Part shown: piece after piece, positions 49,588 through 56,186 of the stretch
How the letters are laid out: each line of letters starts with the position of its first letter
Numbering within the stretch: position 1 is the stretch's first letter
DNA from: Escherichia coli
GTDB lineage: Bacteria > Pseudomonadota > Gammaproteobacteria > Enterobacterales > Enterobacteriaceae
Length of the DNA stretch: 64,000 nt
Assembly: GCF_016026235.1 (NCBI RefSeq)
Contig: NZ_CP065613.1
Reading direction: 5' to 3' (one strand)
Position numbers and translations under genes: made by a program
The notes under the pieces: model-generated
The model's database searches: none
Seen by the model: only the letters and a program-made list of their open reading frames with translations
What the model was told of the DNA's origin: nothing

Positions 49588-50039
49588 GTAAGCGTACAGC
49601 GAGGGCCGTATTGACGGGGATGTGTTATTCAGCTGGCAGTGCTATGCGCCACGGAAGCAGTTCGCTGACCCGGTTGACCGGCCAGTCTGCTATGACGCCA
49701 AGCACATGGCGAAGGTAGCTTTCTGGATCCACGTCATTCAGTTTGCACGTCCCGATCAGGCTGTACAGTAGCGCTCCCCGCTCACCACCATGGTCAGAGC
49801 CGAAGAACAGGAAGTTTTTACGACCCAGACTGACCGCCCGCAAGGCATTTTCAGCGATGTTGTTGTCGATTTCCACCCAGCCATCGTTCGCATAGTACGT
49901 CAGTGCCGGCCACTGGTTAAGTGCGTACGCGAACGCCTTCGCCAACTCTGAGTGTCGCGACAGGGTCTTCATCTTTTCCGCAACCAGCTTTCCAGGGATT
50001 TCAACAGCGGTTTCGTTTTTCGCTGACACCATGGAGGGA
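49588..50039 (-). mobile_element. IS66-family 3' end fragment (terminal repeat plus tnpC C-terminus), inverted
   Basis: gtaagcgtacagcgagggccgtattgacg terminal repeat at 49588; ORF 49625-50032 ...[50 protein letters not shown] is TnpC C-terminus. Confidence 0.65.
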
Positions 50040-50604
50040 GTGGTTAAAAGAGCAACGAGAAAGTGGTAATTATAACGCCAGCCGGATATGGCGGGAAATG
50101 GTGGCCCGGGGATTTACAGGCAGTGAAACCATCGTCAGGGATGCGGTTGCCAAATGGCGTAAAGGCTGGAACCCACCGGTTACTACTGCCGTCAGACTTC
50201 CTTCAGTCTCCCGGGTAAGCCGCTGGTTGATGCCCTGGAGAATAACCAGGGATGAAGAAAATTATGCTTCCCGATTTATTAGTCTGATGTGTGAAAAAGA
50301 ACCTGAGCTGAAAATAGCGCAGCAACTGGCACTCGAGTTCTACCGTATTCTGAAAACCCAAAATAAATCACAGCTAAGCAGTTGGTTCACTCGAGTCCAC
50401 GAAAGCGGTTCAGCAGAATTTCGGCGCGTGGCGGCGGGGATGGAAGCTGATGCTGCAGCTATATGTGAGGCAATCAGTAGTCGCTGGAGTAATGGTGTTG
50501 TCGAAGGTCATGTAAATCGCCTGAAGAAGATGCTGAAACGCCAGATGTATGGTCGAGCAGGATTTGAACTACTCAGGCAGAGGGTAATGAGTCCACTGGC
50601 ATGA
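50040..50604 (+). pseudogene. ISL3-family-like transposase remnant
   Basis: C-terminus ...SNGVVEGHVNRLKKMLKRQMYGRAGFELLRQRVMSPLA follows the ISL3 C-terminal pattern; no complete catalytic domain. Confidence 0.4.
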
Positions 50605-50639
50605 AAATCTCCACCCAGGTTGCGGAAGAGCCACTTTTC

Positions 50640-51634
50640 ATCCGTCGTTGACAGTTATACCGCCAGTCAGAAATATACCGTCGTCAGGGCGTGGAGCTGA
50701 GCCGTGCCACACTGGGTCGCTGGACCGGTGCCGTTGCTGAACTGCTGGAGCCGCTGTATGACGTCCTGCGCCAGTATGTACTGATGCCCGGTAAAGTTCA
50801 TGCGGATGATATCCCCGTTCCGGTCCAGGAGCCGGGCAGTGGTAAAACAAGAACTGCCCGGCTGTGGGTCTATGTCCGTGATGACCGTAACGCCGGTTCA
50901 CAGATGCCCCCGGCGGTCTGGTTCGCGTACAGCCCGGACCGGAAAGGTATCCATCCACAGAATCACCTAGCCGGTTACAGCGGTGTGCTTCAGGCAGATG
51001 CTTACGGTGGTTACCGGGCGTTATACGAATCCGGCAGAATAACGGAAGCTGCGTGTATGGCCCATGCCCGGAGAAAAATCCACGATGTGCATGCAAGAGT
51101 GCCAACCGACATCACCACGGAAGCCCTGCAGCGTATCGGTGAACTGTATACCATCGAGGCAGAAGTCCGGGGATGTTCAGCAGAACAGCGTCTGGCGGCA
51201 AGAAAAGCAAGAGCCGCGCCACTGATGCAGTCACTGTATGACCGGATACAGCAACAGATGAAAACACTGTCGCGTCACTCGGATACGGCAAAAGCGTTCG
51301 CATACCTACTGAAACAGTGGAAGGCCCTGAACGTGTACTGCAGTAATGGCTGGGTGGAAATCGACAACAACATCGCAGAGAACGCCTTACGGGGAGTGGC
51401 CGTAGGCCGGAAAAACTGGCTCTTCGCGGGTTCCGACAGCGGTGGCGAACATGCGGTGGTGTTGTACTCGCTGATCGGCACATGCCGTCTGAACAATGTA
51501 GAGCCAGAAAAATGGCTGCGTTACGTTATTGAGCATCTCCAGGACTGGCCGGCAAACCGGGTACGCGATCTGTTGCCCTGGAAAGTTGATCTGACCTCTC
51601 AGTAAATATCAATACGGTTCTGGCGAGCCGCTTA
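50640..51634 (+). mobile_element. IS66-family fragment: 5'-truncated tnpC (CDS 50691-51605) plus right terminal repeat
   Basis: TnpC-like ...[32 protein letters not shown]...; right end ccgcttac at 51628-51634. Confidence 0.7.
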
Positions 51635-51751
51635 CGTGCAGCAGTCTTATCCGGCAGTTTAAAGGGGAGGACGGAGACCAATGAGGCACTGGAGCAGATT
51701 CAGTGCAGAGGTGACCTGCTTTATCAAACTTAATTGTGACAAAATGGGTAA

Positions 51752-53776: not shown

Positions 53777-54123
53777 TTTCACTCCCATCAGGTACCCGTA
53801 TCTGGCTCGTTGCCGGCGTTACCGATATGCGTAAATCCTTCAACGGACTGGGAGAACAGGTACAACATGTGCTGAATGATAATCCCTTCTCCGGCCACCT
53901 GTTTATCTTCCGTGGCCGACGGGGTGACACCGTTAAAATTCTTTGGGCTGATGCTGATGGTCTGTGCCTGTTCACCAAACGCCTGGAAGAAGGCCAGTTT
54001 ATCTGGCCTGCGGTACGTGACGGCAAGGTATCCATTACCCGTTCGCAACTGGTAATGCTCCTCGATAAGCTGGACTGGCGTCAGCCAAAAACATCCCGCC
54101 TTAACTCACTGACAATGTTGTAA
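53773..54123 (+). CDS. tnpB: IS66-family TnpB (orf2)
   Basis: 116 aa [26 protein letters not shown]..., overlaps tnpA stop (ATGA). Confidence 0.75.
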   Translation: [116 protein letters not shown]

Positions 54124-54153
54124 AAAACTCCTGACCGCATTATAAAAACGGTC

Positions 54154-55767
54154 ATGAGTCAGAAATACCTCATTCGCATCGCAGAGCTGGAAAGGTTGCT
54201 CTCTGAGCAGGCTGAAGCCCTCCGTCAGAAAGACCAACAACTGAGTCTGGTTGAAGAGACGGAGGCCTTCCTGCGTTCTGTGCTGGCACGTGCCGAAGAA
54301 AAGATCGAAGAAGATGAACGGGAAATAGAACATCTGCGGGCTCAGATAGAAAAACTGCGCCGGATGCTGTTCGGTACCCGTTCTGAAAAACTGCGTCGTG
54401 AAGTTGAACAGGCTGAGGCCCAGCTGAAGCAACGCGAACAGGACAGCGATCGTTACAGTGGGCGAGAGGATGACCCGCAGGTTCCCCGCCAGTTGCGACA
54501 GTCACGCCATCGTCGTCCGTTACCGGAGCATCTGCCCCGCGAAATAAACCGCCTGGAGCCTGAAGAAAGCTGTTGCCCGGAGTGTGGCGGTGAGCTGGAT
54601 TATCTGGGGGAAGTCAGTGCAGAACAACTGGAACTGGTGAGCAGCGCCCTAAAAGTGATCCGCACAGAACGGGTAAAAAAAGCCTGTACAAAATGTGACT
54701 GCATCGTTGAAGCACCGGCACCATCCCGTCCGATAGAGCGTGGTATCGCGGGCCTGGGGTTACTTGCCCGCGTGTTAACGGGAAAATACTGCGAACATCT
54801 GCCACTGTATCGTCAGAGTGAAATCTTTGCCCGCCAGGGTGTCGAACTGAGCCGTGCCTTACTCTCCAACTGGGTTGATGCGTGCTGCCAGTTAATGACT
54901 CCGCTGAATGATGCCCTGTACAGTTATGTGATGAACACCCGCAAGGTTCACACTGATGACACACCAGTAAAAGTACTGGCACCGGGCAGGAAGAAGGCGA
55001 AAACAGGATATATCTGGACGTATGTCCGGGATGACCGAAATGCCGGTTCGCCAGAACCTCCGGCGGTCTGGTTCGCCTACTCACCGGACCATCAGGGTAA
55101 ACATCCGGAGCAACACCTTCGTCCCTTCCGGGGTATCCTGCAGGCAGATGCGTTCGCAGGTTACGATCGGCTGTTCAGTGCCGAACGTGAAAGCGGCGCG
55201 TTGACGGAAGCAGGATGCTGGGCTCATGCACGGCGCAAAATCCACGATGTATATATCAGTACCAAAAGCGCGACGGCGGAAGAAGCACTGAAACTAATCG
55301 GTGAACTGTACGCCATTGAGCACGAAATACGCGGGTTGCCGGTGTCTGAACGCCTGGCGGTCAGGCAAATGCAGAGTAAACCGCTACTGACTTCCCTGTA
55401 TAAGCTGATGCAGGAGAAAGAACACACGTTATCGAAAAAATGCCGTCTGAGAGATGCGTTCCGGTATATCAGGAAGCACTGGATTGCGTTGTGCAACTTC
55501 TGTGATGACGGTCTGGCGGAGGCGGACAATAACACAGCGGAAAGAGCGCTTCGTGCAGTCTGTCTCGGAAAGAAAAATTACGTGCTCTTCGGTAGCGATC
55601 ACGGCGGCGAGCGTGGTGCACTGCTGTACGGGCTGATCGGCACCTGCCGTCTGAACGGTATCGATCCGGAAGCGTATCTGCGCCATATTCTGAGCGTACT
55701 GCCGGAATGGCCTTCCAACCGAGTTGGCGAACTCCTGCCATGGAACGTAGTACTCACCAATAAATAA
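54154..55767 (+). CDS. tnpC: IS66-family transposase TnpC (orf3)
   Basis: 537 aa; leucine-zipper N-terminus, CPECGGEL zinc finger, DDE region HTDDTPVKVL...WAHARRK. Confidence 0.8.
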   Translation: MSQKYLIRIAELERLLSEQAEALRQKDQQLSLVEETEAFLRSVLARAEEKIEEDEREIEHLRAQIEKLRRMLFGTRSEKLRREVEQAEAQLKQREQDSDRYSGREDDPQVPRQLRQSRHRRPLPEHLPREINRLEPEESCCPECGGELDYLGEVSAEQLELVSSALKVIRTERVKKACTKCDCIVEAPAPSRPIERGIAGLGLLARVLTGKYCEHLPLYRQSEIFARQGVELSRALLSNWVDACCQLMTPLNDALYSYVMNTRKVHTDDTPVKVLAPGRKKAKTGYIWTYVRDDRNAGSPEPPAVWFAYSPDHQGKHPEQHLRPFRGILQADAFAGYDRLFSAERESGALTEAGCWAHARRKIHDVYISTKSATAEEALKLIGELYAIEHEIRGLPVSERLAVRQMQSKPLLTSLYKLMQEKEHTLSKKCRLRDAFRYIRKHWIALCNFCDDGLAEADNNTAERALRAVCLGKKNYVLFGSDHGGERGALLYGLIGTCRLNGIDPEAYLRHILSVLPEWPSNRVGELLPWNVVLTNK

Positions 55768-55899
55768 GCGTCAATACGGTGCTCCGTTGACGCTTACCAA
55801 AATGGCGATTGAGAAGGTGCAATTGACTTATCCGGATTCGGTCGTGGCGAGGTGGTGCCCCTGCATTCTGCTAACCGGGTTATGAGCCAGGAGTCAGCG

Positions 55900-56186
55900 A
55901 TAGACAAAGGGACTTATCTGACCGGGCCCCCGGAAAAATGGCGGGAGAGAATGATACCTTCCTGCTGACGAGACCGGACTTTGAGATGACGAGCGATAGT
56001 GCGGCAGTGATGTACAGCCTGATCGGTAGCTGCAAAACTTAACGGAATCGAGCCGGAAACGTGGCTACGCCACGTGATCAGTGTAATCAACACCTGGCCT
56101 GCCAACCGCATGAAAGAGTTGTTGCCCTGGAACGTCACTCTCTCTGTAAACTAATTTTTACCCCACGTCCTTCACGGTGCGCTTAC
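55900..56186 (+). mobile_element. IS66-family 3' end fragment (third copy remnant)
   Basis: ...SLIGSCKLNGIEPETWLRHVISVINTWPANRMKELLPWNVTLSVN TnpC C-terminus in a disrupted frame; terminal ggtgcgcttac at 56176-56186. Confidence 0.5.

Follow-up and report, generated by a model that had tools for sequence, protein, structure and literature searches.

The region at positions 49588-56186 of a 64,000-nucleotide stretch of Escherichia coli DNA (RefSeq assembly GCF_016026235.1, contig NZ_CP065613.1; the whole stretch is hereafter called the window) is a graveyard of broken and nested mobile elements, of an ordinary kind, that lies between two virulence-gene modules on a pheV island. One module carries sigA and a hypothetical open reading frame (ORF) and the other iha and the aerobactin genes, and the two are very probably separate cargo modules that meet at a fossil junction, which would have formed through a series of insertion sequence (IS) insertions together with one or more deletions, and would thereafter have been inherited as a block. 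The sole strain-specific feature of this mosaic is a copy of ISSso6, an IS1111-type element, in the left terminal repeat of the full-length IS66-family element ISEc43. By analogy with other IS1111-type elements, this placement was most likely an RNA-guided event. We set the boundaries and names of the pieces by comparison with complete E. coli genomes (5426 for all genome counts given here), together with an ORF listing, Pfam scans and direct reading of the sequence. A preliminary description of the region had proposed a nested mosaic of IS66, ISL3 and IS110 elements, and every piece that it listed is present, with small coordinate corrections only.

ISSso6 cuts the left repeat of ISEc43 after its first 5 nt (GTAAG/CGTAAACTGACC, the slash here and below marking the insertion point or joint; the right repeat ends in GTTGACGCTTAC). 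The insert is 99.9% identical to ISSso6 copies and has an AG dinucleotide at each junction, this ambiguous AG being all that could stand for a target duplication. Loci L001 and L002, which are otherwise 99.8% identical, lack ISSso6 and thus present the empty site, and alignment with L001 places the insertion. An 8-kb query was matched at 99.8% in strains 55989 and SCPM-O-B-12142 except for one 1.5-kb gap, which corresponds to ISSso6, and the ISSso6/ISEc43 junction was found in 0 of the 5426 genomes, as well as giving 0 exact matches among GTDB species-representative genomes. Membership of the IS1111 subgroup of the IS110 family is borne out by the protein domains, the subterminal repeats (ATGACTTTCCGTG and CACGGAAAGTCAT), an oriented and sequence-specific target, and a 3' non-coding region (265 nt 3' of the transposase gene vs. 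125 nt at the 5' end). An intact copy at 30151-31670, whose transposase ORF (30228-31403) matches DEDD_Tnp_IS110 (PF01548, 2.6e-11) and Transposase_20 (PF02371, 8.2e-24), lies in the same window and could have supplied the transposase. The inserted copy differs from this second copy by two homopolymer lengths and zero substitutions: its transposase gene is broken by two 1-nt deletions (C5 to C4 near 52127 and A6 to A5 near 52795), leaving two overlapping IS110-type ORFs at 51830-52965.

Flanking sequences gathered from other ISSso6 copies, counted as independent sites, yielded 11 left flanks and 8 fully characterised sites. The left flank is GTAAG at 10 of the 11 and ATAAG at the eleventh; most right flanks read (AG)CG and then T or C, and the orientation is constant. 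IS66 terminal repeats make up 4 of the 8 fully characterised sites, and the right end of ISSso6 adjoins an ISEc23/43-type right repeat in 20 records, compared with 49 records that hold full-length ISSso6.

IS1111-type elements pick their targets by means of a seekRNA from the 3' non-coding region, in which the top-strand complement lies 5' of the bottom-strand complement, with an overlap between them in the target, and such sequence-specific targeting has been shown experimentally across the family (PMC11187229). In ISEc11, for instance, the non-coding sequence reads CAGTATTTT and then GTGAAAATA, with GTGAAAATACTG as the target (PMC11187229, supplement). The 3' non-coding region of ISSso6, which is predicted to fold stably, contains a stretch complementary to AAGCG(Y)NAACG, plus a GUAAG stretch, and we take these as the candidate top-strand and bottom-strand guides. 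A perfect site for the former would be GTAAGCGCTAACG. Its perfect 11-nt match to a natural target was reached by 0 of 1000 shuffles; IS66 repeats pair with it through 8 Watson-Crick pairs and 1 G-U pair of 10 positions scored, and the ISEc43 right repeat through 9 and 1, respectively, of 11 positions. The conserved tip of IS66 terminal repeats (GTAAGCGT.AAC) is best explained as a near-cognate, abundant target for ISSso6. From the flank consensus and the ISEc11-like seekRNA layout, we infer that placement in the IS66 left end was most likely guided. The more specific proposal, that ISSso6 is a seekRNA-guided IS1111-type element whose preferred natural target is the IS66 repeat tip (GTAAG/CGT.AAC), seems to us evenly balanced between right and wrong.

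A number of points weigh against this account. The guide assignment in ISSso6 is made by analogy, the bottom-strand candidate is just 5 nt long, and a 10-mer of the non-coding region, ATATCAGCGT (53158-53167), falls within a predicted stem, where it faces GCUGAU (53088-53093). The right repeat of ISEc43 at 55797, which is as good an IS66 target, is empty of ISSso6, and the enrichment at IS66 ends could come in part from the retention of harmless insertions. The two frameshifts in ISSso6 may be real mutations, but could equally come from assembly or polishing. Taken further, the retention argument would place ISSso6 in the ISEc43 repeat by chance, its association with IS66 reflecting tolerance of insertions in junk DNA, in keeping with the half of the characterised sites that lie outside IS66 ends and with the 19 GTAAG[C/T]G sites in the window that are unoccupied. 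Chance would nonetheless have to account for a fixed orientation and a GTAAG flank at all left flanks but one, for the 11-nt complementarity to the non-coding region that no shuffle reached, and for the experimentally established, family-wide sequence-specific targeting (PMC11187229), and we consider it highly improbable compared with guided insertion.

Other features of the non-coding region were also recorded. The 10-mer ATATCAGCGT is identical to the joint of the ISSso6 right end with the right target flank, a match length reached by 4 of 500 shuffles. When the region was compared with the ISSso6 donor ends (GGCAG, CAUAUGAC), matches were no better than those of shuffles (157/500), and we claim no donor guide. 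Across 49000-57000, Rfam models scanned with a permissive cut-off gave no bridge or seekRNA family, and one chance snoRNA match. Two matches, H58 and H60, were considered as ISSso6 relatives with another 3' non-coding region, and hence as cases of natural retargeting; these were rejected as copies truncated by another IS.

Directly after the intact ISSso6 copy at 30151-31670 comes a partial 3' copy of 571 bp (31668-32238), which corresponds to positions 949-1520 of the element. The joint of right end to internal sequence in this array reads CATATCAG/CATTACC, and the internal site AGGGCAG/CATTACC resembles the left end of the element itself, AAG/GCAGTATGAC, which suggests that the array may have arisen by aberrant donor-like recombination or as a decayed tandem dimer. 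The ornithine decarboxylase gene speC (32168-34174, minus strand) appears truncated by the array at its 3' end, its ORF of 668 aa covering profile positions 1-637 of 720. The target at speC, ATAAG/CGCTATGC, is the only one of the ISSso6 sites collected with ATAAG in place of GTAAG.

ISEc43, the host of the ISSso6 insert, owes its name to the Prokaryotic Genome Annotation Pipeline (PGAP) annotation of the near-identical loci L001 and L002. Its IS66 gene set is intact (HTH_Tnp_1, 5e-12; TnpB_IS66, 2e-36; DDE_Tnp_IS66, 2e-93), with further zinc-finger, leucine-zipper and C-terminal Pfam domains, and its ends carry inverted repeats that start with GTAAGCG, flanked by an 8-bp duplication, as in the IS66 family. 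Strain Z135-5 (L014 13478-14184) has an uninterrupted, empty ISEc43 site, where the spacer that precedes ISEc43 runs straight into the sequence from 55798 onward and the two flanking matches overlap by exactly 8 bp. The arrival of ISEc43 was a textbook IS66 insertion, and because the 8-bp duplications match and an empty site exists, it was a simple one, without later recombination with another copy. Since ISSso6 parts the first 5 nt of the left repeat from the rest, it has probably immobilised ISEc43, by analogy with IS4321 and IS5075 in the repeats of Tn21-family transposons. The preliminary description had a complete IS66 element at 51748-55797 with an IS110 copy in its left end; those coordinates are exact.

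Table 1. Coordinates (window positions), strands and properties of the IS pieces and related features
Feature	Position	Strand	Properties
ISEc43-like internal tnpC fragment	43012-43388	-	TnpC residues 351-476; no element ends
ISEc8 (IS66 family) 3' end	49588-50028	-	441 bp; tnpC C-terminal part and right terminal repeat
ISEc38 (ISL3 family) 3' end	50029-50653	+	625 bp with right terminal repeat; left ~1.1 kb gone
ISCro1-like IS66 element	50654-51635	+	982 bp; tnpC 3' part and right terminal repeat, tip 51635
iha-cassette backbone spacer	51636-51747	.	112 bp; last 8 bp (51740-51747) = left ISEc43 target duplication
ISEc43 target duplication	51740-51747 and 55798-55805	.	8 bp, CAAAATGG; direct reading
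ISEc43 (IS66 family), full length	51748-55797	+	2532 bp plus 1518-bp ISSso6 insert; right repeat tip 55797
ISSso6 (IS110 family, IS1111 subgroup)	51753-53270	+	between GTAAG and CG of ISEc43 left repeat
ISSso6 3' non-coding region, predicted seekRNA	53004-53225	+	stable fold, z = -4.84
Candidate top-strand guide	53060-53070	+	CGUUAGCGCUU; perfect 11-nt complement of natural target AAGCGCTAACG in L004
Candidate bottom-strand guide	53101-53105	+	GUAAG; equals invariant left flank; 5 nt
ISEc43 tnpA	53351-53776	+	intact
ISEc43 tnpB	53773-54123	+	intact
ISEc43 tnpC	54154-55767	+	intact
Fourth IS66-family remnant	55993-56186	+	194 bp; frameshifted tnpC C-terminal end and right repeat, tip 56186

The remaining pieces are fragments (Table 1). 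Matches to named IS elements across the mosaic range from 95 to 99.9% in BLAST identity and from 1e-13 to 1e-93 in Pfam E-value, far beyond chance, and IS66-type repeat tips (GTAAGCG or its complement CGCTTAC) stand at 49588, 51635, 55797 and 56186, with the left tip of the complete element at 51748. The four IS66 fragments all have tnpC homology, and a GTAAGCG tip wherever the end survives. The first, 99.3-99.5% identical to ISEc8-annotated copies, runs from its tip at 49588 to an internal break at 50028 and contains an ORF (49625-50032, minus strand) with DDE_Tnp_IS66 and IS66_C domains; the preliminary description had extended this inverted 3' end to 50039. Next to it, the ISL3 remnant placed earlier at 50040-50604 proves to be ISEc38, 99.4% identical to the matching part (L013 8584-9205) of a full, annotated copy, with an ISL3 transposase C-terminus (ORF 49921-50604; DDE_Tnp_ISL3, 3.5e-13, profile positions 116-240) and a terminal inverted repeat of 49 nt, left and right copies of which are paired in L013; the left end is deleted. 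We place its right end at 50653 because homology to ISEc38 in its other context (L013) stops there, which is also as far as the inverted repeat extends, and the next element starts at 50654. Where ISEc8 meets ISEc38, the joint links an internal point of each and is the scar of a deletion. A plasmid match (H188) was considered as a precursor of this joint and rejected: the adjacency there is coincidental and not colinear.

The 5'-truncated IS66 element given earlier as 50640-51634 is ISCro1-like (~95% identical to ISCro1-family transposase genes, 95.6-97.6% to the L013 and L003 copies), its ORF at 50691-51605 matching positions 36-283 of DDE_Tnp_IS66 together with IS66_C, and its 5' side is cut short, probably by the ISEc38 insertion. 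For the IS66 3' fragment set at 55900-56186, the tip is exact and IS66 homology is detectable only from 55993; this remnant is 91% identical to L013 11259-11452 and matches TnpC residues 472-535 in tblastn. Outside the mosaic proper, the inverted IS66 fragment at 42990-43387 needed a shift of its borders (to 43012-43388). It is 93% complementary to ISEc43 positions 55203-55579 (93.7% identity in tblastn), is situated upstream of sigA amid fragments of IS3 and TraF genes, and has a counterpart that PGAP calls a pseudogene in L001, L002 and L021. A tblastn search for further IS66 coding remnants found none in 49200-49600, in 51630-51750 or in the spacer between iha and iutA.

The short spacer (51636-51747) on the upstream side of the IS66 remnant beside iha behaves as a small landing pad, with independent landings by the ISCro1-like element (ending at 51635) and ISEc43 (starting at 51748). 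In strain CFT073 (L015 10684-13210), an ISEc10 copy with a 5-bp duplication, GACCT, lies only 30 bp from the ISEc43 site.

The mosaic is already known in the sense that it is present in well-known E. coli strains. An 801-bp probe spanning the ISEc8/ISEc38 and ISEc38/ISCro1 joints matched over its whole length, at 99.5-100% identity, in 41 complete chromosomes, among them enteroaggregative E. coli (EAEC) 55989 and O104:H4 outbreak strains; as these joints are identical in 41 genomes, they are an inherited scar, not visibly active in this genome. A 25-kb query spanning sigA, the mosaic, iha and iutA was covered by at least 80% at one place in 17 genomes, and the 15 of these that were listed are colinear with it at 99.3-99.7% identity. 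The iha cassette and the IS66 remnant that travels with it are present in 1313 of the 5426 genomes and in many contexts, including sequence type 131 (ST131) and O157:H7, and the remnant beside iha is far older than the mosaic.

Repeat-rich regions such as this one invite the concern that IS copies were collapsed or chimerised during assembly, which the preliminary description had named as the outcome that would undo it and which would make the mosaic wholly or partly an artefact. Transposons are reported to have complicated assembly of this island (PMC3551546), and the two ISSso6 copies differ by two homopolymer-length changes with no substitutions, a pattern typical of polishing errors. Every junction outside ISSso6 is nonetheless found, identical at each base, in finished genomes of independent origin, the ISSso6 junctions carry the canonical GTAAG and AG-CG signature of genuine insertions, ISEc43 is bounded by a proper target duplication, and a comparison with L001 shows zero indels across 6.5 kb of flanks. 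An artefact is accordingly extremely unlikely, more so than any other alternative that we weighed, and we treat the mosaic as real.

A further question is whether the mosaic has been active as a recombination hotspot and, in this lineage, has changed the order of the toxin gene, iha and iutA, the preliminary description having held that it likely rearranged an order sat-iha-iutA. The autotransporter gene here is sigA (1285 aa), a different gene from sat, and alignment to the sat region of CFT073 is confined to the final ~860 nt of the gene and the ORF that follows it. Four blocks are shared with the PAI-pheV pathogenicity island of CFT073: S (that terminal gene segment and downstream ORF, 92.6%), I (the ISEc43-like element, 96%), H (the IS66 remnant and iha, 99.6%) and U (iutA, 98.6%). 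In this comparison, of the kind that the preliminary description had proposed, their order differs, being S I H U in the window vs. H -I -S U in CFT073, and the blocks are edged by IS elements; a single inversion between the two was rejected, as these orders are not interconvertible by one. The IS ends of the mosaic do mark breakpoints across lineages, which, like the many contexts of the iha cassette, supports a softer form of the hotspot claim. O104:H4 has the same mosaic and lacks everything from mid-tnpB of ISEc43 through iha; in its strain 2011C-3493 (L021 7143-8638), a 1.5-kb inverted ISEc43-like 3' fragment (97.8% identity) replaces 204 bp (49384-49587), with its inner break exactly at the ISEc8 repeat tip, an arrangement in which ISEc8 may originally have inserted into yet another IS66 copy. 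Strain 55989 carries an IS3/group II intron within tnpB, and published work describes island cargo modules separated by IS elements and iha moving between islands (PMC3551546, PMC11537424). That the mosaic reordered these particular genes, on the other hand, finds no evidence: ISEc43 has its matching duplications and empty site and so underwent no recombination after insertion, the junctions are the same in all 41 genomes, and the genomes listed with at least 80% coverage are colinear. We therefore regard an active hotspot as unlikely, although a less remote prospect than either chance placement of ISSso6 or misassembly, and favour a fossil junction inherited as a block.

Between the iha cassette and the iutA block, ~2.2 kb (58953-61180) has no counterpart in the CFT073 region examined, and its counterpart in related genomes consists of fragmentary hypothetical ORFs only.

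The probable order of events would begin with (a) an iha cassette that already bore the old IS66 remnant, followed by (b) the landing of the ISCro1-like element 358 bp upstream of that remnant and (c) insertion of ISEc38 into its tnpC. Then (d) a deletion would have fused an internal point of the inverted ISEc8 to an internal point of ISEc38, with loss of the 5' parts of all three elements, and (e) ISEc43 would have entered the 112-bp spacer, creating the duplication. Lastly, (f) ISSso6 would have inserted into the ISEc43 left repeat, 5 nt from the tip, in this genome only and with RNA-guided target choice. As three elements have lost their left ends, the order of (b)-(e) can be resolved in part only, which also counts against a complete account along these lines.

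These results provide a base-accurate map of a repeat-rich junction at which the automated annotation and assembly of pheV and pheU islands go astray, and inherited scars can now be told apart from one strain-specific event; the practical consequences are small. If the proposed target preference is true, ISSso6 would home into members of another IS family and probably disable them. The target rule and the candidate guide are a fresh instance of a known mechanism: neither the specificity of ISSso6 nor the guide at 53060-53070 appears to have been reported, since no paper in the library searched that mentions ISSso6 has the element in its title or abstract, and in the seekRNA paper the element appears only in supplementary protein-sequence and identity-matrix files (PMC11187229). 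They could be of use in studies of RNA-guided IS110/IS1111 recombinases or of IS-on-IS antagonism.

Among known islands, the closest are those of EAEC 55989 and SCPM-O-B-12142, which share the series of sigA, hypothetical ORF and ISEc8/ISEc38/ISCro1 mosaic, then ISEc43, iha and iutA, at 99.4-99.9% identity, whereas O104:H4 shares the sigA, hypothetical ORF and mosaic part and iutA (~99.8%) and lacks iha at this locus. IS elements at module borders in a modular island match what has been published for GI-4 (at pheU) and GI-pheV (PMC3551546; PMC11537424). Unlike 55989, this genome is free of the intron inside tnpB of ISEc43, and unlike GI-4 of 55989 and O104:H4, it has ISSso6 in the ISEc43 left repeat and its island at pheV rather than pheU. 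The pheV assignment made earlier is sound, with speC, yqgA and tRNA-Phe (35325-35400) immediately upstream of the island. In EAEC 55989 (NC_011748.1, L017), the same island type sits at pheU, on the dicD-dsbD side, compared with the speC-yqgA side here, and homology to NC_011748.1 begins 48 bp upstream of the tRNA-Phe gene (window 35277 onward). CFT073 PAI-pheV, in the order iha-ISEc43-sat-iutA, has sat in place of sigA and lacks the ISEc8/ISEc38/ISCro1 mosaic.

As for ISSso6 itself, it resembles the seekRNA elements of the ISEc11/IS1111 type in its DEDD transposase with Transposase_20, subterminal inverted repeats and long 3' non-coding region, as well as in its lack of target duplication, its fixed target and orientation, and candidate strand complements that overlap in the target and stand in the same order. 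It differs in its target, GTAAG/CG(Y)NAAC compared with GTGAAAATACTG for ISEc11, and in its candidate bottom-strand match of just 5 nt. Terminal repeats of Tn21-family transposons are reported to be the insertion sites of IS4321 and IS5075, which are likewise IS1111-type elements (Partridge and Hall, 2003). As with ISSso6, the target is a conserved terminal repeat that belongs to a different mobile element, insertion is in a single orientation, and the host is probably disabled; that host is a Tn3-family transposon for them and an IS66-family IS for ISSso6. ISSso6 is also found at non-IS sites that share the short motif.

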